Source: a virus. From it: a stretch of 64,000 nt of DNA. Of the stretch, positions 11,758-41,600 are shown one piece after another; position 1 is the first letter of the stretch, and every line of letters begins with the position of its first letter. The stretch lies in IMG/VR virus record IMGVR_UViG_3300045988_050969; one strand, 5' to 3'. The position numbers and the translations under genes are program-made. The notes below the pieces were generated by a model. That model did not search any database and was not told where the DNA came from. It saw only the letters and a list, made by a program, of their open reading frames with translations.

Positions 11758-11761
11758 ATAC

Positions 11762-11821: not shown

Positions 11822-11839
11822 CAACAAAAATCATATATT

Positions 11840-13184: not shown

Positions 13185-13190
13185 CAGATT

Positions 13191-14096: not shown

Positions 14097-14100
14097 AAAA

Positions 14101-14126
14101 TAGGCTAGCAGAAATGCTAGCCTTTA
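14101..14126 (+). terminator. 9-bp hairpin after the ATPase gene
   Basis: AGGCTAGCA (14102-14110) pairs with TGCTAGCCT (14115-14123), GAAA loop, weak T tail. Confidence 0.45.
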
Positions 14127-14133
14127 CTATACT

Positions 14134-16009: not shown

Positions 16010-16089
16010 GACATTAAATGATTTTTTAATTGCAATAGCTATGGATTCATGTGAAGAAGTATTTGAAGTAGATGAAAACATAGTTTGCA

Positions 16090-16467: not shown

Positions 16468-16478
16468 GAATTACTCTA

Positions 16479-16522
16479 CACAAAAAAGGCAGGCTTTGTG
16501 AAAAGCTTGCCTTTAATTTTTT
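16479..16522. terminator. bidirectional intrinsic terminator between the convergent modules
   Basis: 12-bp stem, 16485-16496 with 16503-16514 (one G-T pair), loop TGTGAA. Flanked by A6 upstream and T6 downstream, so both strands read hairpin plus U-run. Confidence 0.75.
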
Positions 16523-19500
16523 AATCACCAATAATCTAAGTATCATAGTATCTACGTTTACTTGGAATATCATTTAATTCGATTAGATTTTTGAATGGAG
16601 TTATTTTCCATACATTTCTTTCTAATTGAGTTTTACCTCTATAAGCACCTCTAGTTATTGTTTTACCCTATTTACTCTTTTCTCCTCTTACATTTGATAA
16701 TATTAAATCGTAAGGATAAGAAATTACAGACCCAACGTTATCCAATAATGAGTATAGCGGGGTAGGTGTTTTAATAGTGCTATATATATCTACTAGGTTA
16801 TACGGAGCAGTAGTTTCAAAAGCAGTCCTAGCCATTACATAAGCAAATAGATTAAGAAGTATATTTCTCTTATCTTTATCTGCTTCCTCTTTCAGAACAT
16901 TTCTTATTAAAGGATATAAACACATACACAATGCTGCTTCTATCTTTAACTTCTTAATGTTAGTTCTATCTAACTCACTTGAAAAACCTTTATTAAGAAA
17001 AGTCTATTTTAAAACAGTAGTAAGAAGATCAGCTCCTGATTTGTCTTTCCAAGTTTGAGCAAATACTCTAAATGGAGTTTTAAGTATAGCTTCTACTTCT
17101 CTTTGAGTTTGATAATCCCATTGTCTATCCATAGTAAAACTCTATTGAAGAATAATAGGAATATATTGTCTATGCATCATACACATTGCACCAAATACAT
17201 TAGCACTCATTTGAGCTTTCTGTAAAGGACTTAATTGACCATCTGCAGAACCAGCTAACTATCTAGCAGCATTACCAATAGTAAATTTAGCTTTATCCAC
17301 TGCTTGTTGATACTCTGGAGAAATAGCAACTATTTTGCCAGCACTAAATTTAGTTAAAGCTTTAAATGATTTAGCTTTCTTCCATCTCTACTAAGTCTCA
17401 TCTGTTCTACCATATTTATTATAAAACATTTCATGATGCATAAACTATCCATCAACATATTTATAATCGTACATTACACTATTTAATATCTAACCCTTTA
17501 TAAGATAATCAGACACTGAGTATAATCCAAAAGCCCACTGATTCTAAATAACATTAATAAATTTAGGTCTATTAGTATTAATAAATAAGCTATCCATAGT
17601 AGAACCAACTTCAAAGTAGTCCATATAAGCCATCTATTCACTCTTATACGTTCTACTACCAACGCTTAAGCCATGTCTAAATAAATCAAATACTACATCT
17701 TTAAACGCACTTACTGCATTGCCAAAAGTATAGTATCTACCTGTTAAAGAATTAACAAGATGAGCGTGAGCAGCAGTAAAGAAACCAGTAAATGCACAAG
17801 CAAAGTTTAAACCAAGATTTCGTAATGTACCATAACCAGTAATAGTCTTTAATAACTTAGTTATACTTATCTATCTATCTTTAATAGATATAGATAAAGC
17901 ATTAGTCTTAACGTCATACAAATTCATATTAATAAACTACTCTGCAAACTTATATATATTAGTATCAGTTCCAAGCTTAGGTTCTTGTTTGCCAGTAAAT
18001 ATTCTTTTAATAGAACCTATTGTACTAGTACCAGTATACTTTCTCTATGCTAAGAATGATTTTATATTCTCTACTTTACCTTTTACTTCATTCTTCTGTT
18101 TGAAGTTTTCTGCCATTTTAAAATATTGAATAACAGAACCTACCATATCTGCTGATATAGTAGCAGGATCATCTAACTATTTAGTAAAGTATTGAGGAAT
18201 AAGAGCTAAAGAAGTACCATCTGGAGAAGTTAGAACTTTCTTATTTATACCAACATCATCGTTCTTTACAGTGGCAGCATCTAATAAATAATTACCTATA
18301 GCAGCAAATGGATTAAATCCAGATGCTTTAAGATGTTTATATAAGCTACCAGATATTTGAGGTAGTCTATACTTATTCAAATACTCTAGATTATTTAATT
18401 TACTGTTAGATTCCTCCATTGTATCTATTAAAGCTTTTCTAAGTTCAGATAATGCTTTATTAGACATTACTTCATTATACGCTTTACTGTTATCATATAT
18501 CGACCTCTTAGGCTGATAATATTCGTCATTGTCCTATTTATAATTCTTATTAACAAATGGAGACTCTGATGATAATTCAGATAAGTTAGAAGAAGGAATA
18601 ACCTGTATATATTTACTATCTTTAGGAGCAATCTTTGTATACCAAGATTTGGGAGCAGTACCAGTAGATGTATTATAAGTATTAGTTAAATAGAATACCT
18701 CTGAACTACCAGGAACTTCTTGGTCTTTAGCTAATGCGGCAGCTTCGTCTCTCTTATAAGCTTCAGTAGCTACTACTCTAGCTATCTTACTAAATTCAGT
18801 CTTTGATCTCTTTTTTTTAGATGACTTTCTTATGTTATTCATCTTAACCTCTAACTAATCTAGTAATCTTTTAGTAGAATTAGGCATTAACTTAGGATTT
18901 ACTTCACCAGTACGATTGTCTCTGAACATATTTAAGATAGCTCTCTTCTACTTATTATATTCAGCATATACTTCTCCATAGTCAGCTCTATCTAAATTAG
19001 CTAATTGTTCGTAAAACTCCTCAGTATATACAACTCTAGTATTACGATCCATCCATTTTTTAAATTCATGCTTACTTAGACTATTTCTTTTTTCTTCAAT
19101 TAATTCCTAGAATTTCTATTGATTATAGTTCTTATTAAGATTTTTTGATAATTTATTATTTAGTTCAGTAAGTTCATCAGCTATTCTTCTTTCTACAGAA
19201 CCTTCTGGCTTTTCATTGCCATATATATCATAAATACTAGCTAATTCCTTTTTATCTAATTCATACTGTTGTAGAGTATTCCATTCCTCATCTGTCATTG
19301 ATTCATAATGAATTACTCCATTATTATCTCTATACTTATTAGATAAAGTTCTTATCTTAGACATTATCATTTCTCTTGCTGAAGCTGCTTCAGGGCTAAG
19401 AGAATTCATTAAATCATAGAATTCGTTAGTATATTTACGTTCACAGTGTTCTGATAACCATTTATTAAGTCTTTTATTATATTCTGTTCTAGTAGCTATA

Positions 19501-21434
19501 TTCTCAGGTAATTGAAGAGTTTGATGGTCTACACCAAATTCTTTCTATAACTATTCTTTAAACTATTTTAAATCTTTATAAAATCTACCGTAGTTTAGAT
19601 CTCTAATTATATAACCAGTAGTATTGCCATTCTCGTCTACTTCAAATAATAACTTCTAATTTCTATTTCCTGCTACCTTTAATAGTTTATTTAGTTCGTT
19701 AGCTTTTTGGAATACCACTTCATTTATACTATTCTCAGTATCCTACAATATATTAAATAAACTTTTAATAGCTTCATCATTAATTCTATCTCCAGAACCT
19801 AACACTCTAGTAATATAGCTAATATCAAAATCTGTTTTTCTAGTATTTTCAGATATATAGTTATATATAGTAGGGCTATTTACTTTCATGCCTTCCTTCA
19901 ACATAATTCTCTAGGCATTAACTACTTGCATACGCTTAACTGCATCATAACTCTAATCTAATATACTCTTACATAATTGTAGTTCTGTCATTAACTTATT
20001 ATAATTTGCTTCTCCTACAATTTGTTTATAAGTATTCATGTTTACTAAAGAATTATATATATCTTTAGCCTGTTCACAGTAAAAAGCAAAATAGTTCTTA
20101 TTTAATGCTACGAGTTCTTCATCTGTTAAAGCATCAGCCTGACCTTTATAAGCTTCTACTACTCTATTACCTACATCTCTTACATCTAACTTTAAATCTG
20201 TAATAAAAGAAGCAATAACATCAAAATCATTTATAGCATTATTCTATAAATTAGCTATCTGATATTTTATATTCTCTATTACTTCTGTTCTTTTAGATAT
20301 ATCAGAGATGTCTATACTACGTAATCTAGATTGTAAACCAGAGAGTAAGTTCTATCTTATATCAGATAACCTCTTATCTAACTCTTCTTTAGTATCAAAG
20401 TCATATTTTTCTGCTTCATGTATATTTGTTTCAAGCTGCTTAACTTTATTGTTTAATAACTTCTCAAATCTAACATTAGCAGATCCATTATTATCTTCTA
20501 GGTTAAAAGATAACAATTCCATTAGTATGTCTCTAGTATTCTCTGTATTTCTTACATGTTCTTTTCCGGTAAGTAAATCAACAATTGCAGACCATACTTC
20601 TCTTATCTTACTTATAGCTTCTTTAAATAATCCTCTCTATCTGGCATCATCTACTATATTATTTACAAATTCTTCATTAGTAAGAAATTCAGCTATAAAT
20701 TCAAATTCATCTTTTAAACCGTATAATCCACCAGTCTATTTGCCTTTTTCATCATGTATACTCTAATATAAAGATCTATTAAATTCTAGTAAGTCTTTTA
20801 CTTTATTATATACTTTTATTTCTAAATCAGTACCTATACCGCTTTTAACATTTTCAAAAGATCTTGAAGTAAATGCATGAACCATTTCATGTACAATACT
20901 CTTTGCATTGTACTCCATATTTGTTTCTTCAAATATCTCTTTATTAATCCATATAGTGTGAGTATTATCACTATACCACATGTAATCCCCATTAGCTAAT
21001 TGATCTTTTTCTTCTGTTATACCAATATATACATCAGTATCAGAGAATAAATCAAGTATCTAGTATGCTATAGAATCTTTTGGTATATACTATTTTAATC
21101 GTTCAACTACTTGTCCTGATGTGGTACTCATATGAGGAGAACCATCTGACCAAGTACCAGTAACACTACCTATACTTGAAAAGAAGTCAGAAGGTCGTTC
21201 CTAAGACGGTATAAACGTTTTAGCCATCTGTCTAATAGCTTGATCACGATCTCCATCAAAACGTTTTAAAAGGTCTGAAAACAGCTCAGACTAAGACCCA
21301 TCTGGGCCCTAGTCTATAGCATAACCATTGTTTTCAGATATGATATAATAAGCAGCATCTTCACTGCCTAACACTTTAGCAACTTCATCAACAGCTGCTT
21401 TTACTTCTTTGTTATTTAAATTTAAACACTGCAT
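16521..21434 (-). CDS. large virion-associated protein with N-terminal zincin metalloprotease motif (1637 codons, TAG read as sense)
   Basis: One frame is open from ATG 21434 to TAA 16521 if TAG is sense. ORF-track fragments 16668, 18177, 18534, 19116 and 20763 share the phase and all end in TAG. HEMVH lies at 20877-20891. Confidence 0.65.
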
Positions 21435-21436
21435 AA

Positions 21437-24400
21437 TTATTCACATTCTTTTTTACGTTTCTTACCCATTTCAACAAGATAAGTCATATCTACCACATCT
21501 TCAGTAACATCCATATTGAAAGCTTCATTTGCAATAGAGGAAGTATCTACATTTGCAAAAGGATCTTCTGTTTCTTGTGAGAATTGTTCTTGCATATTTG
21601 AGAATATATCTAACTATTCGTTTATGATGTCCATAGATTCAGATCCGTCAAATGGATTATCTAGACTAAGATTAACGAAATCTGATACATCTGTTTCATC
21701 ATATACTACATTATCTTCAGATAACGGGTCTATATTAAAGGTAGTATCTACTACTTGCGTATCAGATACATCACCTTCCATTTGCTTCTATGTTCCGTTT
21801 ATTTTTACCTAAATATTATCTGAACTAAGAGGTATAAACTGTTTAGTAAATTTACTTCCGTCCTTTAATTTAGGTAATTTAACTCTAGACATTGCAGTTT
21901 CTGCTATAACGCTATCATCAGTTAATACATTTTCATCAAATGCATTCTGATCAAAAGCTGATATATCCAAACCGCCTTTTGCAAACTCGTTAACTCTAAA
22001 TCCATTTTCTTTAATACCTAATTTAGGTATTCTCTTATAGATTAGTTTAGCCCCTCTCTTACTCTTCTTACCTTCATCACTTACATAAGCTATTTCACCA
22101 ATTAATTGATATAACTAAATTGATGTATTATATCCAGAACCGTTATTTACAGTTATGAATTCTGCTCTTCTAGTTCTATAATGAGGAACAGCGAAGCTGT
22201 CATACATAGTAATAGATTTACCTCCAATACTACTTCTAGATTTAGATAATATAATATCATAATCACTACTCTTAGAACGGTCTTCCTATTGTTGTTGGAA
22301 AGGATCGTTACTATTAGGCTTAAGATTGATATTATATTTAGGAACTATATTAGGATCATCCCACATATTTCTAGCTATAGTCAATCTAATAGAAGGGAAA
22401 CTCATAGATTGAGGATCATCACCAGTTTGAGCTATAGAACTATATCCAGATACATCTCCTCCATTTTTAAATTGGTCTAATACTTCTTTAATATTAGATA
22501 CATAACCATTATCTATCTTGTATTGAATAGGAACTAAATGGAAGAATGCATTTACTCCTCTTTCATCATAAGAAGTATAGTATGCATATTTAACCAGATC
22601 TTCTGCAAATTCTCTAACTACATCATCAGTATCTTCAAGTAATTGAGCGAAAGCAGATATTAACTGATTCTCTCTATCATAGTCATTATTCATTGAAGAC
22701 TCAGATAGAATAATTCTGTCTACATTCTAACCTTCTAAGCCATCTGCTGGATATTCCTATAAGTAATTTAATAATTCATTCTTTATAGTTCCATCTTGAT
22801 TAATAAGATGTGGGAAAGCATCTTTGTTAAGTAACAGATATCTTTTGAGTTTGGTTAATCTAGAACACATAGTATTCTTACCTACAAACATTCCTCTAAA
22901 TTGATCATCTGCCATTTTAAGGAAGTCAGTATTAGAAGTAGCTCTAGCTCTAATTATACTGTCAATCATTCTATTTATATTCTGAACAAACTTCTTATCG
23001 CCTTGATGTTTATAGGATATTAAATCATTACCATCTGTGCCTTTAATGATATCTCCTCCTACAATATTACCCATTACTGAATTAAATATATTCTAGTAAG
23101 TCCAAGTTGCGGGGAACGTTTGACTCTTAAGAATCTTTCTAGCTATAGTAGTAGCATTATATAACTTCTTACTTAAGAACGTATTACTAAAGTAGTATTT
23201 CAAAGCATCATCTACTTCCTTACCTTTTATTTCAAATACTCCAGAATTATCATATATAAACGTCTGATATGAATTTACAAAGTTTAACTGCAATGCTAGA
23301 TTGTTACCAAACTTCTTAGTATCAATCTGAGATCTATGTACTAATTCACTAAGTGTTTTAGCATCCATGCTTAATTCTTTATAAGCATGCAATACAATAA
23401 TCTGTTGATATAAGAATGGTAAATTATCCTGTTTTTTATTCTTTAAAGCGTATATAAGACTAGATTCATCAAATACCTGTGTCTTATCTATTACTTCACT
23501 CTTTATTCCAGGATATGCAGAGTACCCAATTTCTTCAGCTAAACCATTATATTTAGCTTTCCAATTTTGTTTACTTTCACCTTCTGGCATAGCGTCTATA
23601 GCTTCCTTAAGTAACTTACCATATACATTGTATAATCCAGTGATTATCTAGTTTTCCTATAGATTTTCAGCTCCATATACTCCCTTACTATTGATAACTC
23701 TATTAGATAACTCTTTTAATATAGGTTGAGCTAAGAAATAGAAAGTATTCTTACCTTTACCACCTCTAAGTAATAGGTTAGTCATATTATAAGTAACCTG
23801 ATTAACATTTAAAGCAATAATATAAGGATCTTTAGCAACGTCTACGTGGGCATTAATCATAGCAGATAACCAGTCAAGGATTCTAAATCCATCTTGACCT
23901 TTAATAGCATCTAAGTCTCCTAACTAATACACATTACTATGACTATATATCATATTAAGATGCATCAACTATGTTAATACATGGTTAGTAGAGTTAAGAG
24001 CAAAAGGAGCAATACCAGCTTTACCACTAGTATACTCTTCTTTTCTAGATTCCTAGAACGAAGGCAATAATTCATAGAAAGGATCTGCTTCTTGTTTACT
24101 AGAACTTGATATTAACGGTAGTACATCATCTTGTAGCATACCAGTAAGAGTATCAATAGATGCTCTAGTCTCAGCCATATTCTTAGTATCTGATACTACT
24201 AATTGATAATTCTGTATTATCATATTCTGCAACGCTTCAGGACTTTGCTCGCTTACTTTATCATTAGTATATTGAACTATATTTCCATCTGTATCGTAAT
24301 TCAGCATAGCAATATATAGTTTATCAACGTCAAAGTCAGAACCCGTCATGGCTGTAAATTCATCCGGAACTACGATAGTATCACTGAATCTATCAGGAAG

Positions 24401-27400
24401 TACATCTACTACTTTAAATGAGAAAGTAGAAGACAAACCCTGAGTAGGGATACGATAACCAATACCTTGTGGAGTAGAATTAGTACCAATTACATTATGG
24501 TCGGTTAACCATTTTTTCATAGCTCCGTAAGAAGTTTGATACTCTTTTGGTACTATATGTCTAAAAAAGTTAGTACTCAAGATAACATCCATACTTCCAT
24601 CTTTATTCAAGAATCTAAGTTTATTACCGCCATTAAACGCACCATTTAACTATGATTCTTTCATTCTAGCATCAGTTGCTTTTAAACCAAATGAAGACAT
24701 CTGAATAGCAGAACCACCAGGAGTATTAATATCTACTACTTCTTTATTTATAAATGATATAATTCTACTTTCAATCCATTGTCTACTACTCTGAGCTGCT
24801 AACGGAACAAGTATATTGCCATCCTAATCAAGAGTAAGACCTTTAACAAACTCATCAGACATACCAGAACTAACAGCCTAACTAACTAAGTAGTCTGATA
24901 AAGCCTTATTATTCAGTTTACCTTTATGGAAGAATCTCTTAATTATTCTCTTATAACCTATATCGGATAACTGATTAATGGCATCCATTGTCTGAGTCTT
25001 AATCTATTGACCAGTTTTAGTAGCAGCTTTATTAGTACCGTACACTCGATCGTCTATAAGATTACCTAAACATATTTTAACAGCCTAGGTACCAAACGAA
25101 CGGTCAATATGCTCATGTGGATCTGTATTCAACTGTAAACGTAAATTACGAATATCTTGAACAAATACAGGCAAATCTCCTTCTTTCTTAGTAAGATTGA
25201 AGGATTTTTTATTTAAACCGTCAACATTAAAGTGTTCGTTTTTAGGACCTTCATAAGCTTCAAATTTAGTTCTACCACCAACTTTAACAGCAGATTCAAA
25301 AGTAACCATGTCAATTACTCCTAATTTATCATTATTCATACGATTATATAAGACTCTATTATCAGCCTTAGCTATTACTTTGAATAATGGGAACATAGCC
25401 ATCTTATCAAATACAGGAACATTCAGATTTATATCACTTTCCCTATGGTCTCCAAAGTATACCATCTTTAACGGTTTAACTACGAGAGCTAAAGTTTTCT
25501 GATATAACTCTGGTTTATTCATCCATGACTCATCTTCTCCTTCCATTATTTGATAAGCTTCTTCGATAGCATCACTCCATTGTCCTAATGCTTTCATAAT
25601 ACGTCTATACATAGCAGGGCGAATATATACAGCAGCATCAGATTGATTGATATTACCACCTACGATATTTCCTTTATCATCTCTTCTGAAGTCATACGGT
25701 CTAGCACTAGCATTAGTATAGCTATCTACAAACTCTTTCTAATTCTGCGTAAGAGAATTATAGAAAGCATCTTCCTTCTATTTAGTAGATAAAGCCTATA
25801 TAACCTCATTGTCACTTAAATTAGGATGAGCTTCGCTGTATAAATCACGTAGAATAGAGTTTCTGAATATACTTTTTAATTCGTCATAATAATCAGAACC
25901 AAGCATATTGTCAGCAAGATGCATTACTGTTACTTTAGTATCATTCTCAGCTGGATTATCCCAGATAGTTCTAAGATTAGTACCAGTAGATAATACAGAT
26001 GATAAACGTTTAATTTTATCCACATCCTTACCGGTTATTATATCATAGGTTTCATTAAAGTGCCCTTTTCTATTAATTTTATATGTTTTCTTTTTCTTAC
26101 GTTTCCATTTATAATAAGCAGGATCTCCTGTAAAACATTTCTCTACTTCCATGATAGAAATAGCCTAATTAGCTACATGAGAACCAATTACAGAGAATAA
26201 TATATCTTGATTCTTAAGACCAGATTCTTCAGATGTATACATTGAATTATTTAGTTCTGATTTATAGTAATCAAATATGTTACTAGGTATTAACTTATTA
26301 ACATATTCACCATTTGAATATCCAAGTATACCTCTTTTTACAAGAGCTCGCATTTCTCTTTGAGTAGCGTGCAGTAACAAATGATTTATTGCAGAGAATA
26401 TAGGAGCAGAAGGTTCAATAACTTCTTTAGAATTAGGTTTAGATGTACCTAACAGTAATACTTTTAAATCTGATAAATACTTCTGAACCTCTTCTGTAGT
26501 ACCATATTGTTCCAATCTAGCTAATTCTTGATTGACATTTAGAACATCTTCACCAAGTCTTAATCTAGTAAAGTATCTGAATCTACCTCCATTACCAGTA
26601 TGATCCATCTTACCATTTTTAATCTTACCGTGGTAATTGTCTACTCTTAATGTAGGATGCTGTGCAATATAATCTTTCTTCTAGAAGTAATCCCATACTG
26701 CATTAAATTCATCTAACCAATAATTAGCAAATATATTAAGAGTACCTTGACTAAATCTTCTTTCTCCTACATAAGTAGAATTTTCAGCTGTTAAATCTTC
26801 TCCAATAATAGCTGCATAATTAGCATCTCCTTCATCAATATATTTACTAGTAAGAACATCTTTTACCATTTTGATACCTGATATACTATACCAAGTCTTT
26901 TTATCAGACATAGTAGGTAATATCATTCTATCATTAAAAGTAAGAGTAAGCTTAGCAATATAATCTTCAACAGGAGTAATACCAAAATAATCTCTACTAG
27001 ATTCATCTATATTCAGTGCTAAGAAAGTGTGCAATTTGAATTTAGTATTCTTAGCATTAGCTATCAAACTATGTGCAGAGAATGGAGTACTTAATATCTG
27101 TTGTTTCTTACCATTAGCATCTTGATTAATGTTACGCACTTGGTCTGTCATATAGTTATTTTCACTGATAGGATAAATCAGCGCACCATCTGCTCCAACA
27201 ACACTAAACTCTTGAGGAGAAGGATGAACCTTACCGTAAGATATTGCCATTACAGCTATCTAACTATTAGAATTTCTACCAAATGTAAACATTCTATCCA
27301 AAGTTCTAGAGTATCCACCACCTGATGTAGATTTTACACCTATGTCTTTAGTTTCAGCTAGTTTAATCAAAGTAGCCAAAGTACCTTCATTAAATCTCTC

Positions 27401-30400
27401 TGTTTTACCAGCTCCAGTGCCTTTCCAGAAATTATATAGCTTATCAAATTCAGTAGCTCCAACATAGAAATTATTAAGCATATAATCTAATGCTAAGTTA
27501 TCCATAGGAATAGACAAAGCATTAAATACATCCAATAAAGTATCCTTTATTTCCTATATCTTAGTATCATCTACCGGTTTACCTTTCTTTATTCTGTCAC
27601 TTACTATTTTAAAAGTAGAACTTAATTTACCTCTTCTATCTTTTAAGAACTTAGCAAACTCTGGTTTAATAAAAGGTCTACCACTATCTGTTCTGTCTAT
27701 AGCATCAGATGCAAAGAACATACCTGACCATCTAGCAGGAAGTCTACCTACTTTACGTAAGTTATCACTATCTTCTACAACCCAATTAAATTTACTTAAG
27801 CTAGATTGTATTTCACTAGCTATTTCATCTTCAGACTTACCTCTTGTATTTATTTTAGGATGCTTAGTAGTAATAGTGTCTAACTGTACTTTAGAACTCT
27901 TTATAGTTATCTCTAACTAAGTTTTAGTATTGTCAGATATAGGTGCTTCTTCCGAAGTAAGAATATCATATAAAGATTTAAAGAAAGGAATAGTATTACC
28001 TAAATTAGCACTTCTATCTATTATATCCTGATACTTATCTATATCCCATAAGTTCTCCATAATCTGATTCCATACAAAATTGAAATCTTCAGTTACAGGA
28101 AGTTGGAACATATCATCATGTACAGGAAATAATTCTTTAGTAATAACGCCGGTTTCTTCATCTTCAACAAATTGGTATTCATACTTAGGTATAGAGTAGA
28201 AGAACAGTTTAGCTCTAAAGCTAACGTTATCTTTCTTACTTACTTCACCTTGATTCTTATCCCAATTGTTTTCAGATTGTTCACCAGTCTCTACTTTTAA
28301 TCTAGACTCTTCCTCATTATCTACTTTTTCTACTTCTCTAATTCCTAATTGTTCTATCTTCTTACGAACATATCTAGTAAATATATCTTTGTTATTTACT
28401 ATATCCTGAGCAATATCTACATATTCGTCAGATATCCAACCAAAGTCTATATTCTACTGTAATCTGTCAAATAACAAAGAAGTATTAAGATTATGAACAT
28501 CCTCTATGGTTCTAATATTAAATATAGATAACGCTCCACTAGTAAGAGAATTAACAGCATGATAGAATACATCTGGATCAGTTATATGAGGTAATTTAGC
28601 TTCTTCTTCCTTTGATAAACCAGGTATATAATAAGATAAACCTTCTGGTTTACGGCTATAGAAATCTTCTAATGCTTGCTTAGAGGCTTTATAATCCTTA
28701 AACTAACCGTCATTTATACTCTTGAAAAAAGCTCTGATTATATTTCTGTGAGAATTCCAGAAGTACAAGGTATTATATATCTTCTTAAAGATTCTAATGA
28801 CATTATATAATAAACCTTTACCGTTTTGATCCTTAGCGTAATTACGGAATTCTTCAGCAAGCGCTTCCTCTGCTTCATCTTGAGTAAGATTTCTAGCACT
28901 TCTTTTAGATTTAGAATATTCTTGATATAACTTAGTTCTCTATTGTTCACTCAATAGCATTTGAGTTACATAGTGGAATGCTTCGTGATATTCTACACCT
29001 GCACCAGATTGTCTAGATAAAGATATACGAGGTATTAATTCGTTAGAAAGTGCATCCATTACTACACTGAACAAACCGTACGCCTCTTCATTAGCTCCAA
29101 ACTTAATCATTTGGTCTGTTACTAATATCTGATCGCTATCTATACCTAACTTATCAAATAACCATTTCTTAGCAGAATCTTCATTAAACTTACCTCTACC
29201 TTTAATAGTTGATTTAAGACCACCTAAGAACTTAATTGGAGTAAGAGTAACTTCTCTTTTACCAGTCTTAGGATTGAGAACAATACCCCATTTAAGGTAT
29301 TGACTTTCTTTCATTCCATTATCTGGTATACTTAATCCATATTTCTCAAGATTCTCAGGAGTAGCTCTTTCTGCAATTACAACTTTCTTACCACTAGCTG
29401 TCTTAGCTTGAGAAGGTTTGCTTACATCTTCTATTACTTTATCTTGAGTATTAACAGTAGGTTTAGGTTTGTCTTGTTGTTTCTATAATTCTTCTCTATT
29501 TATTGTAGCATCATCTGCATATATAAATGGAGCATAAAATGCATGTTCACCTAAATCTGTCTTTAATATTCCATTATTAATAGCCCATGTAATTACTAGA
29601 GGAGAATCAGACACCTTTACAGCCTTACCGTCTTTAAAAGTATAACCTATTTCTTTTAAAGAAAATGTTAAGTCTTTAGAGAATATAGGTATTCTACTGT
29701 TTTCGTCTTTTACTAGATTAGGAGAACTATTAGCTATAGACACTAGTAAGTCTATAAATTCTTGAGGGAATTCAGACATTAATACATCCTTATCAGTATT
29801 CCAGTGTATATTCTATGAAATCTAGAATACTATTCTTCTCTTTTCAAAATCTGTTAAAGTAGCTAAGTTAGTAAATTGTGTACTGAATCTCTTTTCGGTT
29901 CTAGGACCTTCTTGAGTATATACAGTAGCATCTTCACTATAGTATCCATTAACAAAGAATCTATTACCTTTATCATCAGTATATATACCTAATTGCTTTC
30001 TTACTAAGAAATTATACTTAACTCTTTCTACTCCTTCTAAACCATTAGTAAATGTATTAGAGCCACTATTAGCTAATAATGACAATAAGAAAGAATCAAT
30101 TACCTTAGCATTAGAACCTCTTACTGATGTCTGACCAGTAATAATATTAAATATTAACTCAGCAGTAGAAGGAGTAATGGGCTTTCCTTGCTCATCTACA
30201 TTTTGAGTGCCGTCCGCATTGAAGGCTAATTTAACCTGCTCTGGATTGTTTACTCCAGATATTCTATGCAATTCCTCAGATAACATAATAGGCAATGTAG
30301 CAGTACCAGAAGGAGTATTCTCAGGTTTAGGTATAAAGTATATTTTACCAGCATAACCTATACCTTGTGTTTCAGTCTTATCTCTAGTAAACATATCATC

Positions 30401-33400
30401 TATAGAGAAAGGATCAACACCAAATGGACCCGTACCATATCCAAACTGGATATCTCCACTAGTTATTTGTTCAGACATAGCAATAGCATCTTCTGTTATA
30501 CCAAAATCACTTACTTCAGTTAGCTTTCTAAACTTTGGTAATCCTGCCTCATCTAATTGATTATCAAGCTGACCGTTACTTATTCTTATTCCTACAGGTT
30601 TAACATGCTTCCTAGCAGTTAATGGTAATGTTTTAGTAGTAGAATATTCTGGAGCGTAAGCCTTAATTATCTTAGCTCTCAATTCTCTTAACTTCTATAT
30701 CTACTCATCTATTTCATCCTAAGTCATTTCCGTATCTCTCATACGGTCATACAGACTCTAATTGATTGCTCTAACAGATGCATTATACAGTTTACCATCC
30801 TTCTCTATCATCACGTGAATAGCTAAATTATCTATAGCACTATCAAATGACATGTCATGTTTAAAGGATGTAACTACAAAGTATATATCATCAGCTGTTG
30901 ATAACCATCCCGGAATAGCTAAATTATCAGCTAATTCTCTACCTGGTCTTCTATCAACTTTACCACCATCTTTACCTACAAACTTTACAGATTTACCAGC
31001 TACAGTAATAGGCATAACTTCATCTGTATTAGGCTGGAAGAAGAAAGTATTAGCTATATGTAATCTTCTGAATTTCTTTCTAGCAGCTACCCAACCATTA
31101 GTAGACCTATTATAATATGAAGAAGGACCCTACAATCTGGAATCAAAATCGTATGATTCTTCAAATGCAGATTGTTCTAATATATCTTGGTCATTTACAG
31201 GTATTCCGTTTTCAGGATTACCATCAGGCATGTATACTAGCTAATCGTTCTAAGCATCATAAAAAATTTCATCAGATTTTGGAGTGTCCTCTATTTCTGT
31301 AACATTTACTGGATTCTCTACTTGAGGAGCAATATCTGAAGCTGCAGGAGTATCCTCTACTTCTGTTACTGTAGGCTATTCTGCAGATCCTTCTTCCTTG
31401 TCCTGTAGTGATTCCTCAGCAGGAGAAAATTGAGCATCGTCTACTTCCTCCTGTTGCCCCTAAGATTCTTCAGTAGTAGAATCATCTGTTTGCTATTCTT
31501 CTACCTCTTCAGCAATATCTGTAGGTTCTACTGATGTAACTTCTTCAGCTGGATTCTGCATCTATACTTCATCTTCTATATCTTGATTAGTATTAGTAAC
31601 GTCATCCATTTCTACATCAGCTTCTACTTCATCTACACTTACTCTATCTTGTAGAGGAGAACCTTCTATAGCTTCCTCTAACATGTTTAGTTGATCTTCT
31701 AGACTACTTATTTCCTATTCAGCTATCTATACATCTGGTATAGTAACCTCTTCTACTTCATCCATAGGAGCAACCTCTGGAGCTTTTGTTTCAGTATTGG
31801 GAGTTCCTTGTTCTATATTTGTTAAATTACCAGTATCTTCAGCTATCTCCTCTCTACTTACTTGCTCTTGATCTTTTTTACGCTGTAAATCTTTCTGGAT
31901 AACAGACATAGCTCTTTTACGCTGTACTAAATCCTGGTCGGCAAGTTTATCGTCTTTGCTCCATTCTTCATTTACAGAGTTATCATAATCCTATATAATC
32001 TAATCAGAAGTTCTAGTCTTACCGTTTATCTTGTCTGCCTACATCTCATTAGTAAGTATTTGCTTCTGCTGTTCTTCGGTAAGATTATTATAAGTAGGTT
32101 TATACAATCTAGTATCACCTACATATTTTCCAGTAGTATATGCTAAAGCATGAGCGAATAAATCAGCTCTTGCCCCATCATTAACATACTTGCTTATGGT
32201 AGCTACAGATAATTGATCTGCAAAAGGAACAGATAATCCAAGATCCATTACCTGTTCTCCTACTTCTTCTCCTAAGAATCGCTGTATAACTGGTTTACGT
32301 TCTTCTATTTGAGATTCTACATACTTTATAATACCAGATATACCATCTACATTTACATCTAAATTCTTATCCTCTTTTAGTCTTTGTAAATCCTGTTTTC
32401 TTGAATTAAGTTCATCTCTAAGAGTAAGTAAGTCATTGTAATCTTGAACAGCAACCATTCTGCCCATGAATTCATTAGCATACTCTTCTTCAGACAGTAC
32501 ATTTCTTTCACCCAGTAATTGGTCTACGTATTCGGATAATTCCTTTTTACTTCTAGAAGTAATATCAGATGCAGGTAAATCATTAACTATCTGTCTTCTT
32601 CTATCACTACGTTTTTTATCATAGCGAGCTAAATAATCAGAATAATGTTGCTTTATTTCTTCTTTTAAATCAGCATCTTCTCTTATTTTCTGAATAACAC
32701 TTTCTATTTCTCTAGTAGAAGCTTCAGATGCTTCACTAGCATCTTTTAATCTATCTTGAATATATACAGCATTTTTTACTACAGATATAAAGTCATCATT
32801 ATTTATTCCTAGTTCATCAGTTATACTACGTAAAGACTTATTATTAGATAATCTTTCTATGTTATTTACTAATCTTATGTCTTCATCAATCATTTCATTA
32901 GTAACACCTTCAGGTTTAAATTTATCCTTAAGAGTTTCTAAATTATTGATTATTCTAGAATAACCTTTTCTTCCATCAGAACTAGCAGCATTCATGAACT
33001 GCTCTACCTTATTCTGCTTTTCAGCATTACCATATCCGTCAGCAATATAACCTCTCAGATTACTATCTGTAAGGTATTGAGCAGTAGCACTATATACATC
33101 CGGTGAACTAAATACTCCAGACATAAATAATCCAGTAAATCCACCTATATCCATAGATTTACGTAAATCAGCATCACCATTTAGATTCTCATCAGGATGA
33201 ATACCATAGTATGCCATATGAGCTTCTCCTGCTAATTTTAATGCATTAGCAGCTCCCTACAATAGACTATAATCTCCAGCATTATCATACTTACCAGTTC
33301 TATAGTAATTACTTACTACTCCCTGTTGGCCTTCTTCTGTCTTTTCCATGAAGTAAGAAACGCCTAATTTCTTACCAATGTTAGTGAGATTACTTATAGC

Positions 33401-35242
33401 ATTGTATGCTCTAGTTTTACCTCCAGGAGTTTTCCATGCTTTATCTACAGCTCTAGCAATAGTACGATCTATAATACCATCAGCTGCTGCATATAAATCA
33501 TCTTTACGTAATCTATCAATTACAGTAGTTTCTAGTCCAGAGGATATATTACGATTACCTACAGCTCTTTTAGCAGCTTTCTATAATCCAAAGTAGTTCT
33601 TCATATATGAACCACCAAACATAAACATACCTTGAGCTAAGTCAGATAACATTAAAGCTTGATTAGTCTATCTAACTACATCTAGACCTTTTTGAGAATC
33701 ATTTACTAGCTAATTAAAATTAGCGTCGGGAGTGATTATATTCTGTGATAAAGCGTTTTCTAATACTTCATAATCTGTCATTTCAGAAGTATCAAATCCT
33801 CTGGCTTTTAGCTACTCATCGGCAGATTGTATTACACTGGGAAGATTAATTCTCATCTAATCTGCGCCTTCTAATACTCTCTACTTAAATGAATCAAATA
33901 CTTCAGCTTGAGTTTCTGAATTACGAGTGTAATTAGTAATAGCAGCTTGAGTAGCTAATTCTGCAGCACCAATTAATAAAGGAGCAGTACCACCAGAACC
34001 TGCAGCCATAACTGCTTTAGATGCCCATTTGGCAGCCATGCTAGTACCAAATTGTCCTAACATAGCTCCAAATTCAGAATAACTAGTACCTAACTCTGGT
34101 AATGCATAAATCCAAGATTCTGGATTAAATGCAGATATTTGATTATTCTCTTGTTTTTCTCTAAACTCAGCAGATATTTTACTTGGGTCATACAACCAAT
34201 TACCGTGCTTTAAAGTATGTATCATACTTTGTATCTACTGATTTTTATCAGCTAAACGAGAACTTACAACCTTTTCAGCATTATTAAGCTATTCAATCTG
34301 TTTTGCTAAATTGCTGCCTTGGTTTTTACTACTCCACATATATTCTATTTGATCTGGAGATAATTGATGAGTTCTCCCAAAGATTGCATCGTTTATACCG
34401 TCATTAGCTAATAAGTGCTTAAAGTTATTACCAGGATTAAGATCACCAATATAATCTTCTGCTAGCCAGTCAAAACTATAGTATTTCCATAAGTCTGTTA
34501 CAGAACCAAATTTATCAGTACTGAATAATTTACCAGGTCTAGTCTCATAGAATATATCCTGTAAATACGGATTAGTTCTAGCTAGCTCTTTTAAACCAGG
34601 TTGATGATATATGATGTTACCGTTCTAATCTAATTGGTTTACACCATTTTCTATATTCTTAATATTATCTTCTAGTTCAATTATTCTATTCTGAGCTGAT
34701 TGAATTTGCGTAGGTGTCCAATCTGTTGCAGAATCAATCTATCTTTGTAAATCAATTAATTCTTGTTTACTTGTAAGATAATCTTTAGCTAGATTAATAG
34801 AATTTAAATAGTTAGCTTCACCCTCTCTAACTTCATTCTATAATCTACTTAATTTAGATTGATCCTTCTTTTCCATAAAACTACGATATACATCTAAAGC
34901 TTTTATGTCTCCAGACTTCTCAGCTTCATCGTACATATAGTCTAGGACAGTGATATTCTTATCCTTATCATCTGCGTCTTCACTAGACTGAAGTAATTCA
35001 GGCATACTTCTAGATGTCCACCAATTAGATATTCTACTTTTACTATCTTTTGTAGAATCTTCATTAGTAGTTTTATTATCGTAGTTTATATCGTTCTCTC
35101 TATCTTCTAATCTTCTTTGGTAATAATCTGATCTAGAATCGTATGAATACCCATAATCACCTTGTAAGGTATAATTAGGGTATTCACTAGCGATATTATT
35201 ATCTGTATTTTTACCTAGAGTATAGTTCTATTGTCTACTCAT
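21437..35242 (-). CDS. giant virion protein (4601 codons, TAG as sense) containing a crAss-type two-barrel RNA polymerase DxDxD motif
   Basis: 18 ORF-track fragments (22286 through 33881) share one phase and each ends in TAG. Start is ATG 35242, stop is TAA 21437. DFDVD lies at 24323-24337, and an acidic low-complexity linker at about 31260-31730. Internal gene boundaries cannot be excluded. Confidence 0.6.
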
Positions 35243-35251
35243 AATATTATA

Positions 35252-36826
35252 TTAAAATAGTCTGTTACTTTCAGATTGAGCTTGCATTACATCTCTAATG
35301 TCTTGTCCTATGTTTCTACTCTTAGCATGTAACGCATCATTCTCAACTGCTTCTAAACCGCGTCTGGGTACAACCGTACTTACTGGAATTCTTAAATAAG
35401 TACCTTGTTTAAGAGCGGTATTAATCGAAGTTCTAGTTTCACCATAATCATTTGTAGATTCAGTTACTCTTACCTGATCTTCGTCGAGATTTACCCAATC
35501 TCCTTGTACTTCTGCTAGATCTCTAGCTGTATATTTACCTTTATCTATTTCTGATTTAGGAATAAAAATGTATTTATTATGGAATATGTTTGAACCATCT
35601 GTAGTAATATTCGGAGTTCCAGCTACTAAGAAATTCTTAAACTGCCCCTTTTCAAAATCATCTTGTAACTTACTACTACTACCAATCTTTCTATCCATTA
35701 AATTCTCAGCAAGACGTTTTCTAAGTAAGAACTCAGAAGAAGAATTACCTACTCTCCAACCTTGAGAAGTCATCTTACCCGTCTGAGTTCCTTGAGCAGT
35801 TAATACTTCGTTTGCCTCAGCACCTATACCACTACTTAAAGTTCCAATAACATCGTTAATTGCACTATTTAAACTGTTATTAGTTTTAGCACTAAGAGTA
35901 AACATATCATTGAGTTTCTTTCTAGCATCTTGAACTGTAGGTGCATCTTTTAAAGCTGAAGCAAAAGTATCTCTTGCTGTTAACTCTAATTGGTCAGTTA
36001 GATTAAGTAAACGATTCTGTTGACTTCCTGCGCCTGCTCTTCTAGCTAATGCTACAGCCATTGGATCACGTTCTGCTTGGTCATAAGCAAATTCTCTACC
36101 TGCTGTAATAAGTGTTCTATTAAGTTGCTCTTCAGCATCCTGTCTACTAAGACCTTGTCTTTGTAATACTTCTAAATGCTTTTGATATTCTGGGGTATTC
36201 TGTATACTAGATAAGTTTCTTTGTATTTCATAATCTGTTCTATCAGTAGAAACTCCTTGATGAATCCATCCATCTTTAACTCCCATGAAACTAGCTTTCA
36301 GATTATCTACATATGGTCTCACTAAGTCTACTTCAGATTTATAAGCTAAAGGAGCTACGTCATTAAATATTCCACTATCTACTGTGTTATAGTTAGTGAA
36401 ATCCACATCATGCCAAAGAGGATTATACATCCCCTTTATCATTAATTCCTAATTAGCCTTTTGTCTTGCTAGCATTCCTTCTCTACTTTGCTTTAAATTA
36501 CTAAGAGTAGCATAATCAAGATTAGCAATACGAGAATTTAATCTAGCTCTAAAGTTAGCATCTTTCATAGCATCTGGATTAGTAGCAGCTTCATCTATTA
36601 AGTCTCTTATCTTTCCTAAAGAGTTCTCATAGTATCTCTAAGTATCTACAGCAGAAGGAGATTGAAATTCTCCAAACTTACTAACGGTATTAGTAAATTC
36701 ATTAGCAGCTTGTTCAACAGCTTGTCTTTGTGCCTAACCTATTCTATACAATTCACCAAAATTAATTGGTACATAGGTATTCATTATAGGAGCTTCTGCA
36801 GCTCTATCATATCTATTAGCTTGCAT
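35252..36826 (-). CDS. virion structural/cargo-like protein (524 aa, TAG as sense)
   Basis: ATG 36826 overlaps the upstream stop (TAATG). In-frame TAGs occur in the N-terminal 130 codons. TAA stop at 35252. Function not recognised. Confidence 0.6.
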
Positions 36827-38691
36827 TATTTACCTCCTTTTCTACTTATTGTATTACGATTAGAATTCATCAGAGCCTTGAGATCATCTTCAGTAAAACC
36901 AGCTTGCAAGAATCTTTGATATAGAGGCCACATTTCCATATCTCTAGCTTTCTGATTACGCATCAATTCTCTATTCTGAGCCCATTGACTTAACTGACTT
37001 AAACCAGTCCTACGTATATTTCTAGCAGTAGCTCTATTCTGAGCATTAGCTTCATTAGCCATATTCGTAGCATTAACCCATTGCTGTCCTAAACTATTCA
37101 TAGTATTAGCATAATCACCTAAGTACTGATTGTTAACATTACTTTCTTGAGATCTTAAACTAGCTATAGCTCTGTCAGTATTAACAGCTGACTGTAATCT
37201 ATAAGCTAAATTAGCTCCAGTACTAGTATTAATCTGACTAGCATTATAATTACTAGTAGCTCTATTACGGTTTAAATCTTCAATAGCAGGACTAATATCA
37301 TATCTACGTCTACGCATCGTATTACTAATACTAGTAGCATAAGGATTATATACTGCATCAACTGTTTCAGGTCTACCAGTAAATAGATTAGACATAACAG
37401 GAGTTAAAGAAGCTATCCCTGACAAAGCAGAACCCCAATTAAATTTATTATTATCAGGCTCAGGTTTACTATAAGCATTACTTTTAGGTAAAGTAGTAAC
37501 CTTATCTGCTTGAGAAGTAAGGGCGTCTCCTAAACCTACCATTTCACTATTAGTAGCAGTTAGTAACTCTGGATGTTTTGGTTTCAGCGGATTAACTGTA
37601 CCATACCAAGTAAACGGTAATTCTGGTTTACCTTCATCAATTAATCCTGTATTCGTAGAAGTAGAAGTTGCTTTACGTCTACGTGTTGGAGTACTAGTAC
37701 TTGCTGTAGCTGTATTTGATGCAGTTGGCACATGATACCATTGATTATTACCAGTTCCCCACTGTACACTAGCTCCCCATTTACGATTAGGGTTATAGAT
37801 AGCATCTACTATTCTATCTCCTAAACCAGGTTTAATCTCATCACCTAAAGCAGCTGCTTGTATCTACTTAGTCTTAGGTTTAATACCTTTACTTTGTTTA
37901 ACAGATTCCTACATAGCAAATAACTAATCATGAATCATATTATTATTCATTTCATTTAGTTTTGCTGCATTCTCTGCAAATCTGTCATTATATTTACTTT
38001 TCTTCTTTGCCATCATTTTCTCACCAAGTTGTGCAAATGTTTCTTTTCTACCAGGTACTTTAAGCTTATCACTTAATACTCTACTACCTTCAGGTAAACT
38101 AACTAAATTACTGTCAGTAGGTTTATTATTCTCTGGTACTTTACTTATACTTCCATCGGGAGTCTATATTAATTCACCATCATCTACATACGCTAGAGAA
38201 GAGGACATTCCTCCATTAGCCATAGTATCTGTATTCATCCCTATCATATCTTCATATGCTTCACTTTGTAGGTAATTAGTACCTTGTACAGCGGCTCTAT
38301 TACCATAAGCATTCTTCTTAATTGCTGCTCTTTTCCTACGAAGTTTTCTATTACTAAATGCTCCAATTAGACCACTACCAAGACTACCTTCATCATAATC
38401 AGTAAAAGAAGTCATTCTAGCCTCTTCACCGGATCTACCTATTAGCCCTATACCTGCTCCTACTGCAGCACCAATTGGACCAGCAACTTGGAAACCAGTA
38501 GCTGCACCACTGGCTATGTCACTTACAGATTGTGCAGCAGCTTGCCCTCCTGTAGTAGCGTTAGATTTCTAAAAAGGAGTAGTTAAAGTATTTAATATAT
38601 CAGGAGCATTTTCAAGCATGTTATTCCCAATTTCTTTGAATTGAGTTCCAAATGCATATGCTGGTACTTTTGTTTTCTTTTTACTTTTCAT
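36826..38691 (-). CDS. internal virion/cargo-like protein with Gly-zipper segment (621 aa, TAG as sense)
   Basis: Fragments 36826 and 38164 share a phase. Features: N-terminal MKSKKKTK, the Gly/Ala-rich hydrophobic stretch GAATGFQVAGPIGAAVGAGIGLIG, and a T/S/R-rich region. Confidence 0.55.
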
Positions 38692-38692
38692 A

Positions 38693-41600
38693 TTAAATTA
38701 ATGAATTTCTGTATGTTGTTGTAATCTATGGTATTTCAAAAGTATGATCTATATCAGAATCTAACTCATAATCGCATATCATATACTTACCTCTTAACCT
38801 AGCAGGTAACGATAACGCATCTTCATTCTTATCTGCTCTAGGTATAGGGAATCTAAATGTATCTTCTCTATAATCAGTTATTATATGTTGTTCAGGAGTA
38901 ATAACATTACCTTCTTCATCAAGTTCTTCTTCAGTATGCTCTCTAATAGCTTCTTGATGTTTGGTACTGAATTTCATATAATCTATGATATCGTCCTTAA
39001 TAGACTCTTGATTACCATCTCTAAACTCTCCTTGTAATCTAACATTATCAAATACTTTAGTATAAGGAGCATTCTTATTAATAACTATTTCTAATTTAGC
39101 TTTTCTATCTAAAGGAGTTAACCCTATTACTCCAGTATCATGTATAGTATGCAATTCATTGTCTTTTATTGCTACTACTCTATCAGAAATAGGTAACGAC
39201 CATTTAGGATTAAATGTATAGAAAGATGTAAATCTACCTAACTACTCATTAAATACTAGTGGTTTATTTAGTACATTAAACCATACCTCATTATACTTCT
39301 TATCAAATAAAGACATAGCTTTAGCTCTATCTTCTTTAATGTTTTTATTAAAGTAAGATTGTACCTGCTTTTCTTTAGATAACTAACTTACTTGACCTGT
39401 ATAAGAACATATTTCGTTCTTATCATAATCGTACCAATAAAGCACATTATCTGAATTAATTATACTCTTGTCATTCTTAATAGACGAACCATTAGTAGTA
39501 GTTACGTAGTCGAATCTACTTAATATACCACCAGTACCTAATACTAGTTGATTTACATTATCGTCAGTAATAAGTGATCTTTCATTGACAGAAGCTACTC
39601 CTACTCCAGTATCTTGGAAATAGAATAGTCTATCTTTGAATACTTTTAGATTGGTTATGTCTCCCCACTGATTATCTACATCTAAGTAATCAGCTACTTT
39701 GAATTTAGACCACTAATCTATTACTTCATTATTAGTCTTAGCCTATGAAGTTAATATTCTATTAGTATACCTTACGTCTTTATCAGCATACATAGAATTA
39801 GGTACATACAATTTACCAGTATTCTATACTGAGTAAACAGAATTATATACAAAGTAAGGAAGATCCTGTACGTGTATATCTTGCATCTGTGTAGGTTCTA
39901 ACTATAACCAAGAGTCTGCAAAGTTTGAACTAGTTACGGTTCTATGAATCTAATCACCGTGGAATAAATTCATATTAACAGTACTCTCAAATGGTATATA
40001 AGATCCTATGTAGTTTTTCATACCATCCCATTCCTTAGCATCAGGCAATTGGAACAACATAGTATTAGGATAATCTAACAGGCTTAGATAAGTATCCCCT
40101 CCGAATACATATTTACTATCGTGTGCAGATATACTTATATATACTGAATTCTATCTAGATGAAAACGTATTACCACCATATATGGAATTACCATCACGTT
40201 TAATATTAAATACAGGAATAGCATTAGTAGCATCAAAAGGATGAAGTTCAGAATACTTATTAGTAGGTACACTATTAAAACCTGTAAATGTATTACTTAA
40301 TTCAGGCACATGAGCTATGATACATGGACCAGCTGGACCTTGTAATGACTGATTGTCGTTATGAATAAAGTCAGACATAGAATAATTAGTATAAGTTCTA
40401 TTACCAACATTTATTCTTTTAGCTACAACATCAGGAGCTCCATACATATTATAATCTATATTAGGCGGATATTTAGCGTCTTCTATATATGATATATCTT
40501 GAGACTGACCAAAGGTTGGAATAAAATATTTAGCTATAGATGCTCCGCGATATACCTTCTTGCCTCTACTATCCTAATAAGGAAATCCTACTGCTAATAC
40601 GTTAAGATCCCATCTTCTACCATAACCTACGTATGGTACAGTATCTTGTTGTAATACTTCTCCGTTTACCTAGGTAACATAATCTGCTGCAGCGAATATA
40701 CTACGGCTTACACTATTACCTATAGTATTACCATTAGTGTAGTTGTCTTTAAAATCATCAAATTTGCTATCGTTTACTTTTCCACCAACGAATGGGGAAT
40801 AGTATGAACCAATTCCATCTAAGTACACACTACCTTCAAATAGTCTAGTTGCATCATCTCCTTGTACACATATCTCTGGAGATACTAGGCGTATATAATC
40901 ATTTGCCCTCATATTAAGAGAAAAGTTACCAACGTCTTCAGCTGTACCTGTCGATATTGCTAACTGTTCACCAATTAGACTACAGAAAAAAGGAGTAGGT
41001 CTCATCTCAACGCTGCTATCCAATTCAGTACCTTGTCCTACATACTTATCCTACTCTTGAATTCTATACTCGTACACGTAACTACCTACAGTTTGCATAA
41101 GTACAGTTCTATCACGTTCAGTTCTATCACAACGAACTATTTCATAACTTACTGCGCCAACCGGCATTTTCTTTACTTTAAATTCTATACCTAAAGCATT
41201 ACCTATAAGAGTATTGTTCTCATATCTAAATGGAGGCATTTGAGAAGCATGAGGCATTCTAATGTCGCCTATCCAGAGTACAGGAGAAGCTACAGATTTA
41301 TCATTATAGAATATTATACCAAATCTATATACTTCATCTCTCTAGTATCCTCTATAATTAGCAGCTATATACGGATCAGCGTAATTAGGTATATATGGAT
41401 TATTCTTCTGCTCTTCAGTAGGCTGTACTATTTCAGGCATTTTATTATCACCCCTGTTTATATACCTAGTATTATTTCTAACAGTAGGTACATCCATACT
41501 ACAGGATTGATCCAATCTAAACTTATCTTGTTTACTACTTAGATTTATATCTGTAGTTACAAAGGAATACTCTATATTAATACCGTAACCACCTAATTCA

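Follow-up and report, generated by a model that had tools for sequence, protein, structure and literature searches.

What does a giant phage reading frame that contains an RNA polymerase (RNAP) motif encode, and is its product one protein or a polyprotein? The locus in question lies at positions 21437–35242 on the minus strand of a 64,000-nucleotide stretch of IMG/VR virus record IMGVR_UViG_3300045988_050969 (hereafter the window), which belongs to a gut crAss-like phage of the family Suoliviridae (the 'delta' group). RNAP genes of up to ~6000 amino acids (aa) are a signature feature among crAss-like phages (2023 Crassvirales review, PMC10136315). The transcription block and TAG recoding were described by Yutin et al. 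2021 (PMC7886860), and fused polyproteins and a zincin-like domain were mentioned by Drobysheva et al. (bioRxiv 10.1101/2020.03.07.982082). Our analysis indicates, with high confidence, that the frame is one real late gene, in which a clade-specific N-terminal module, an acidic linker with a middle module, and a zincin-like module precede a two-barrel RNAP of the phi14:2 gp66 type. The giant gene fuses the catalytic subunit to an RNAP-associated cargo protein.

The reverse complement of 21437–35242 comprises 13,806 nt, with ATG at its start and TAA at its end. It contains 4601 sense codons, including 61 in-frame TAG, and zero TAA or TGA. The initial annotation had proposed a single open phase from ATG 35242 to TAA 21437, starting 9 nt after an upstream TAA; both the phase and the gap (upstream TAA at 35252–35254) were confirmed. 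Given the base composition of the minus strand, the chance of 4601 codons without TAA or TGA is ~1e-125, and on that strand the two remaining frames are interrupted by such stops 208 and 646 times. With the 61 TAG read as Gln, the predicted product is ~521 kDa with a pI of 5.0. Compared with relatives, the protein has no window-specific insertion of ≥25 aa, on which ground the idea that the gene contains an intein or intron was rejected. Sigma-70-type promoter matches in 15800–35600 numbered 86, versus 110 expected from shuffles, and do not point to internal promoters, the scan covering neither Bacteroidetes promoters nor ribosome-binding contexts.

Comparison with GenBank phages by tblastn returned crAss-like phages only, with cr125_1 (Suoliviridae, Uncouvirinae, Aurodevirus) as the best match and, by sequence, the nearest sequenced relative. 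The orthologous giants are those of cr125_1 (YP_010113174.1, 4502 aa, 78 in-frame TAG), cr60_1 (YP_010112422.1, 4494 aa, 55 in-frame TAG), cr118_1 (YP_010110531.1, 4946 aa), and cr50_1 (YP_010110216.1, 4774 aa), the last two being in the standard code with no in-frame TAG. The window protein is 50% identical to that of cr125_1 over aa 131–4601 and 37% identical to that of cr60_1. Unlike the rest of the protein, its first ~130 residues at the N-terminus fail to align with cr125_1, and the window represents a different species or genus.

These orthologues bear on the suspicion that the giant frame is an artefact of reading TAG as sense, and that the region really holds a row of shorter TAG-ended genes or a decaying pseudogene. 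The standard code leaves fragments of ≤405 aa across the region, and public gene callers did split it, with fragments of 470–1250 aa in public metagenome gene calls. Against this stand the absence of TAA and TGA from 4601 codons, compared with 208 and 646 in the other frames, the enrichment of Gln opposite TAG, and an end-to-end collinear alignment with orthologues, the two standard-code ones being unbroken. Moreover, the identity profile along the protein reaches its maximum at aa 2700–3900, the catalytic core, where identity to cr125_1 is 63–74%. Because two orthologues contain no in-frame TAG, the giant frame is truly a single one and does not result from the recoding assumption; on the alignments, the standard-code orthologues already refute the artefact, to which we assign hardly any probability.

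The recoding itself extends beyond the giant gene. Reading TAG as sense raised the coverage of the window by open reading frames (ORFs) of ≥150 codons from 49% to 98%, while reading TGA as sense brought no comparable gain in the window. The effect is limited to the minus strand, where the block concerned runs from 16.5 kb to the window end; it leaves the plus-strand genes at 1–16000, two of which end in TAG, as they are. Alignment with the four orthologues revealed that Gln makes up 17.4% of the residues opposite TAG versus 3.4% in the background, a five-fold enrichment. Coverage and enrichment together bear out the earlier treatment of TAG as a sense codon, and Gln is its most likely meaning. 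If TAG is Gln, 61 of the 236 Gln codons of the giant gene are TAG. In delta-group crAss-like phages, late genes use TAG as Gln with an early/late split (PMC7886860), and the same pattern of reassignment to Gln in late genes only is found here. The early plus-strand genes that end in TAG (10636 and 11433, within 9419–11442) have a back-up TGA or TAA 2–3 codons later, which would curb read-through once TAG is decoded. The only tRNA genes of the window, tRNA-Leu(TAA) at 1977–2063 and tRNA-Arg(TCT) at 3705–3779, are also on the plus strand in the early region.

The polymerase occupies the C-terminal half of the protein. The two-barrel virion RNAP part (aa ~2261–4480, 21803–28462; this and the following parts of the gene lie on the minus strand) was delimited by its homology to nearly all of phi14:2 gp66 and crAss001 gp50. 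A phmmer search with aa 2701–4350 against all PDB sequences returned a single protein, phi14:2 gp66 (6VR4), with an E-value of 8.4e-32. A profile of five Suoliviridae giants matched gp66 aa 174–1837 with E 1.8e-74 and crAss001 gp50 aa 282–2390 with E 4.8e-34. The assignment of the locus to the gp66 type of two-barrel RNAP, made earlier from the motif, is thereby borne out. Both the alignments and a structural model of a relative indicate that residues about 2260–4300 are homologous to gp66 (PDB 6VR4).

In the alignment, IGYRIPTQG...TGSDFDVDKLY of the window corresponds to IGYRIPNQG...TGSDFDIDKMY of gp66. IGYRIPTQG spans aa 3594–3602, and the catalytic DFDVD, which aligns to DFDID of gp66, spans aa 3636–3640, at exactly the position first reported for it (24323–24337). 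Ile or Val as the fourth residue of DFDxD is a rule for all crAss-like RNAPs (Drobysheva et al., bioRxiv 10.1101/2020.03.07.982082), and the Val of DFDVD fits it. Using the gp66 feature ranges given in bioRxiv 10.1101/2020.03.07.982082, the counterpart of the gp66 Connector, which lies between the two barrels, maps approximately to aa ~3362–3512 (24707–25159). By alignment, the bridge-helix counterpart lies at aa ~3726–3756 (23975–24067; YTSGKAGIAPFALNSTNH versus YAGGKSGVGITANMLVDH in gp66) and the trigger-loop counterpart at aa ~3788–3825 (23768–23881; SAMINAHVDVAKDPYI versus SAFLNAFVDNAKDPYI in gp66). The segment that blocks the cleft in gp66 maps to roughly aa 2300–2340 of the window protein.

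That the DFDVD region structurally resembles double-psi beta-barrel polymerases, as the initial annotation had anticipated, was found by way of a proxy. P0003 is a metagenomic relative that is 62% identical to window aa 3147–4306; its AlphaFold2 (AF2) model (mean pLDDT 69.5) was compared with the PDB by Foldseek. The sole significant match was 6VR4_A (E 6.3e-27, probability 1.00, TMq 0.54), and other two-barrel polymerases fell below significance in this search. The polymerase is followed by an acidic C-terminal tail (aa 4481–4601, 21440–21802) that was recognized by its composition (25% D+E) and ends in KKRKKECE; comparable acidic tails are present in cr60_1 and some metagenomic giants. Two metagenomic relatives, P0027 and P0055, carry an inserted helix-hairpin-helix domain, scored as the alpha C-terminal domain of RNA polymerase (Pfam PF03118), inside the polymerase, at ...FGFKGK / AFNDGNKL.... 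This site equals window aa ~3517–3535 (about 24640–24690), and the window itself is without the insertion.

The N-terminal half consists of modules of a different kind. The first module (aa 1–1170, 31733–35242) has no recognized fold, and its relatives were found by HMMER. A search against 1.84 billion representative proteins with aa 663–1067, the longest TAG-free stretch (window 32042–33256), returned 21 relatives; the full-length ones are all 3553–4649 aa long, with the match at aa ~590–1080. As judged from these relatives, the N-terminal modules are clade-specific and never free-standing. The module is followed by an acidic low-complexity linker (aa 1171–1330, 31253–31732; 33% D+E and 2% K+R) and by a middle module (aa 1331–1960, 29363–31252) that belongs to no recognisable family and is conserved within Suoliviridae.

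The acidic stretch had been placed at about 31260–31730 and described as repeat-containing. The stretch is real and lies near that position; 'repeat-containing' is overstated, as Tandem Repeats Finder detected no DNA array in the linker, and two similar heptapeptides, TEVEDTP (beginning at aa 1293) and TEIEDTP (beginning at aa 1315), are its only repeat. An acidic stretch occurs at the equivalent position in all five aligned Suoliviridae giants and in metagenomic giants. It had also been suspected to mark the boundary between cargo and polymerase, which is not the case: that boundary is ~900 residues downstream, at about aa 2100–2260, and the modules on either side of the acidic linker both belong to the 'associated' part. 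Acidic stretches were also considered as an argument for collinearity with gp47 and gp67 and were rejected, being inconsistently placed in the relatives of these two proteins.

Between the middle module and the polymerase lies a zincin-like HExxH module (aa ~1961–2260, 28463–29362), delimited by its similarity to the C-terminus of crAss001 gp47. It contains the motif YHEAFH (aa 2085–2090; HEAFH at 28973–28987) and a second conserved helix with EExxAExF (aa 2125–2132, 28847–28870). Window aa ~2016–2200 match crAss001 gp47 aa 2144–2292 (blastp E 4.7e-11, profile E 1e-13), and this is the only piece of the N-terminal half with relatives outside the clade. Comparison of nine sequences, comprising Suoliviridae giants and Steigviridae gp47 C-termini, revealed that YHEAFH..V and, ~35 residues on, EE..AE.F are invariant. 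Zincin-like peptidases show such a pattern, with an HExxH helix and then a helix that bears Glu (PMC5512222), and the predicted secondary structure of the region (a helix, three strands, the HExxH helix, and the Glu helix) fits the zincin order.

The zincin-like label is based on these motifs, and the fold could not be confirmed. Profile searches of the module against PDB and Pfam gave nothing significant, one member reaching E 0.0034 with Pfam ATLF, below the cut-off. The AF2 model of the region had a mean pLDDT of 57, with values of <50 around the motif, and Foldseek returned nothing at E <0.5. Two HExxH modules compared by hhalign with each other and with the C-terminal domain of the phage N4 virion RNAP (vRNAP) gave E-values of 0.002–0.14. 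Protein searches with the HExxH region, through an 8000-candidate word filter, returned at least two proteins, and the nine-sequence alignment at least one.

Comparison across crassviruses revealed that the order of the modules is constant and the gene boundaries vary. With A denoting the associated protein, Z the zincin-like module, R the RNAP, and C the gp65-like protein, the layout is A / R / C in phi14:2 (gp67, gp66, gp65), A-Z / R / C in crAss001 (gp47, gp50, gp49), A-Z / R-C in Carjivirus, and A-Z-R / C in Suoliviridae, including the window. The junction of A-Z with R in the window is at about aa 2100–2260, just past the HExxH module. The module ends the 'associated' protein wherever this is a separate gene, namely crAss001 gp47 and the 1957-aa protein of Carjivirus. 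The earlier proposal that the RNAP is fused here to cargo-like material encoded by separate genes elsewhere agrees with the gp47/gp49/gp50 genes of crAss001 and the gp67/gp66/gp65 genes of phi14:2.

The likeness to each of these systems has its limits. Phi14:2 gp66 shares with the window protein the homologous region (aa ~174–1837), DFD(I/V)D, the Connector, bridge-helix and trigger-loop counterparts, and a gp65-like neighbour, but it is a separate protein of 2180 aa, and the identity is only about 22–28%. Phi14:2 gp67 has its own gene and, unlike the window protein, no HExxH motif. In crAss001, gp50 resembles the C-terminal half, the HExxH region of gp47 resembles aa ~2016–2200, and gp49 resembles the 1637-aa gene downstream; gp47 and gp50 total 2341 + 2412 aa, near the 4601 aa of the window protein. 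However, these are three separate genes, gp50 and gp49 are inverted relative to gp47, and gp47 aa 1–2100 have no detectable similarity to window aa 1–1960. CrAssphage LMMB (Carjivirus) encodes an 'RNAP associated protein/zincin protease fusion protein' (GenBank name) of 1957 aa, with HESLH...EALEEF near its end, and an 'RNAP catalytic subunit/RNAP subunit fusion protein' of 4070 aa that carries DFDVD. The module order is the same as in the window, whereas the catalytic part is joined to the gp65-like protein and is apart from the zincin-bearing protein. The N4 vRNAP (gp50) is likewise a giant injected virion polymerase with an HExxH module, but its core is T7-like and not two-barrel, making it an architectural analogy and not a case of enzyme homology. 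The T7-like single-subunit core that characterizes N4-like Schitoviridae was not found in the window protein, which is of the gp66 two-barrel type instead.

Within Suoliviridae, the giant fused layout is present in every genome examined. As in the other giants of the family, the gene is a single ORF in the range of ~4500–4950 aa, collinear with them and in the same neighbourhood, a late-block slot between small cargo-position genes and the gp65-like gene, and the order is acidic stretch, YHEAFH, and DFDxD. At least 10 metagenomic giants of 4455–4649 aa have the order acidic stretch, YHExxH, and DFDxD. The RefSeq names of the orthologues ('nuclear pore complex protein-like protein', 'exonuclease V', 'DNA helicase'; NC_055900, NC_055891, NC_055872, and NC_055868, loci L001, L002, L005, and L006) do not reflect an RNAP. 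In GenBank, the terminal 2.2 kb of MT835588.1, a 33-kb contig, shares 94.7% identity with the 3' end of the giant gene, and two predicted proteins of 1051 aa (P0004 and P0005) are 97.5% identical to aa 3551–4601. Sequence identity at this level indicates that public data already contain part of this phage or of a very close one.

Several points weigh against reading the locus as a late gene for a fused virion polymerase. Pfam and PHROGs searches with the whole protein and eight pieces gave no model above the cut-off anywhere; the PHROGs library was working, as the neighbouring muzzle-like protein and reverse transcriptase were recognized. The structural comparison concerns the 62%-identical P0003 and would apply to the window's own sequence by way of this model. 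No homology of aa 1–1960 to either gp47 or gp67 could be demonstrated: when five Suoliviridae sequences and six gp47 sequences were compared as profiles by hhalign, the best E-value was 0.035 (reversed control, 0.073), and neither blastp nor profiles matched the window protein to phi14:2 gp67. A full-length gp47 hhalign value of E 3e-18, obtained with a relaxed alignment, was discounted, being driven by the HExxH module alone. The naming of aa 1–1960 as an 'associated protein' is based on the order of the genes, on size, and on the HExxH module shared at the C-terminus. A suppressor tRNA(CUA) was not found within the 64-kb window, and the agent that decodes TAG is presumably encoded elsewhere in the genome. 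Finally, expression, packaging, and enzyme activity of the window protein are predicted from homologues.

How such a protein would work can be proposed from phi14:2, crAss001, and N4, from which we infer the following steps. The giant gene would be expressed late. With 61 TAG codons it would depend fully on the recoding switch, full translation having to await the decoding of TAG as Gln. The product would then be loaded into the capsid as cargo and, at infection, be threaded through the tail together with the DNA, after which the polymerase part would transcribe the early genes, i.e. the standard-code plus-strand genes at 1–16000, independently of the host polymerase. Phi14:2 gp66 is packaged in the virion and injected, and it transcribes early genes (bioRxiv 10.1101/2020.03.07.982082); the capsid serves as the store of RNAP-associated cargo proteins (PMC10172136). 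By analogy with phi14:2 and crAss001, packaging, injection, and Mg-dependent early transcription may be expected of the window protein.

Whether the product is cut after the zincin-like module is a matter of about even odds. On one account, to which we give slightly less than an even chance, the giant is a true polyprotein: the zincin-like module would cut in cis, during assembly or after injection, yielding a ~250 kDa cargo protein and a ~270 kDa RNAP, and the cut might also free the cleft-blocking inhibitory segment. In some crAss-like phages, proteins are fused into a huge polyprotein that is 'likely cleaved', and cleavage of such fusions is expected by Drobysheva et al. (bioRxiv 10.1101/2020.03.07.982082). 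Zincin-like peptidases have been proposed as processors of virion 'polyvalent proteins' (Iyer et al. 2017, PMC5512222). Three features of the module point the same way: HExxH and EExxAExF are invariant across two families, the module sits at what is a gene boundary in other families, ending their separate 'associated' proteins, and it lies ~100–250 residues ahead of the counterpart of the gp66 cleft-blocking segment. Set against these are the non-significant PDB and Pfam profiles, the low pLDDT at the motif with its empty Foldseek result, and the N4 vRNAP, which has an HExxH domain yet is packaged uncut (PMC5512222); cleavage itself is a candidate event suggested by motif and position.

The 3500-aa N4 vRNAP is also the model for a contrary account, which we hold about equally probable, in which the giant is an uncut beads-on-a-string ejection protein. 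Here the N-terminal modules would go first through the tail and provide an anchor at the envelope, with the acidic linker serving as a flexible spacer, and the polymerase would refold in the cytoplasm while still tethered. This account is consistent with a fusion that is fixed clade-wide, with an N-terminal module that is never a free-standing gene, and with the conserved position of the acidic linker. It also draws, by analogy, on the N4 arrangement of an N-terminal domain, an RNAP core, and an HExxH-bearing C-terminal domain, which is packaged unprocessed (PMC13434306, PMC5512222). It is less easily reconciled with the three other family layouts, in which the same modules are separate polypeptides, and with the window protein itself, in which no 19-residue stretch has a Kyte-Doolittle mean >1.5, i.e. 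no hydrophobic membrane segment was detected. A more specific form of the polyprotein account combines cleavage with activation. Cleft-blocking self-inhibition was seen in the gp66 crystal structure (bioRxiv 10.1101/2020.03.07.982082), and the HExxH...E module could be a cis-acting maturation protease that splits the 521-kDa product and helps remove such inhibition, which we regard as rather unlikely.

The genes around the giant belong to the same late block. Its stop is followed after 2 nt by a gp65-like gene of 1637 aa (16521–21434, minus strand), a homologue of phi14:2 gp65 and crAss001 gp49, an RNAP-associated virion protein. This gene has its own HEMVH...EFEFIAEF motif, with HEMVH at aa ~182. 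The motif resembles those of phi14:2 gp65 (HEIMH...HEFISE) and the N4 vRNAP C-terminal domain (HELVH...NEFMAW), the hhalign comparison with N4 being not significant; an HEMVH-type motif is present in the cr125_1 orthologue and absent from the cr60_1, cr50_1, and crAss001 orthologues. Upstream of the giant, virion genes of the same block extend over 35252–42865 on the minus strand: a 524-aa protein (35252–36826) and a 621-aa protein (36826–38691), both assigned to the gp45/gp46 cargo slot by position only, and a 1390-aa muzzle-like protein similar to crAss001 gp44 (38693–42865). Facing terminator-like hairpins (minus 16145–16122 and plus 16485–16514) are located where the early plus and late minus blocks converge, and a 13-bp hairpin (21287–21316) lies ~120 nt past the stop of the giant gene, within the next gene. 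A diversity-generating retroelement was also found at 48946–50437 on the minus strand. It consists of a 340-aa reverse transcriptase (48946–50001) with a YADD motif (PHROG phrog_1423, E 1e-123), a 92-nt template repeat (50108–50199), and a variable repeat (50346–50437) located 38–68 codons from the end of an 853-aa late gene (50231–52804). All 22 mismatches between the two repeats are at adenines of the template copy.

Giant fused RNAP genes are already known for Suoliviridae, with orthologues in RefSeq, and the arrangement is not new. As a discovery it carries little weight, because giant DFDxD genes, polyprotein fusions, and TAG-to-Gln late genes are established. Two aspects are modestly new: the comparison of four layouts, which puts the zincin-like module at the variable junction, and the finding that the RefSeq names of the orthologues are misleading. 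The polymerase of these abundant gut phages is still hidden in annotation, because standard-code gene callers fragment the gene and RefSeq misnames its orthologues. A protease has long been suspected of processing the virion polymerase or of activating it, and the zincin-like module at the junction is a concrete candidate for this role. If it does act in cis as a maturation protease, Suoliviridae would offer a natural system for the activation of the crAss virion polymerase, a question left open by Drobysheva et al.

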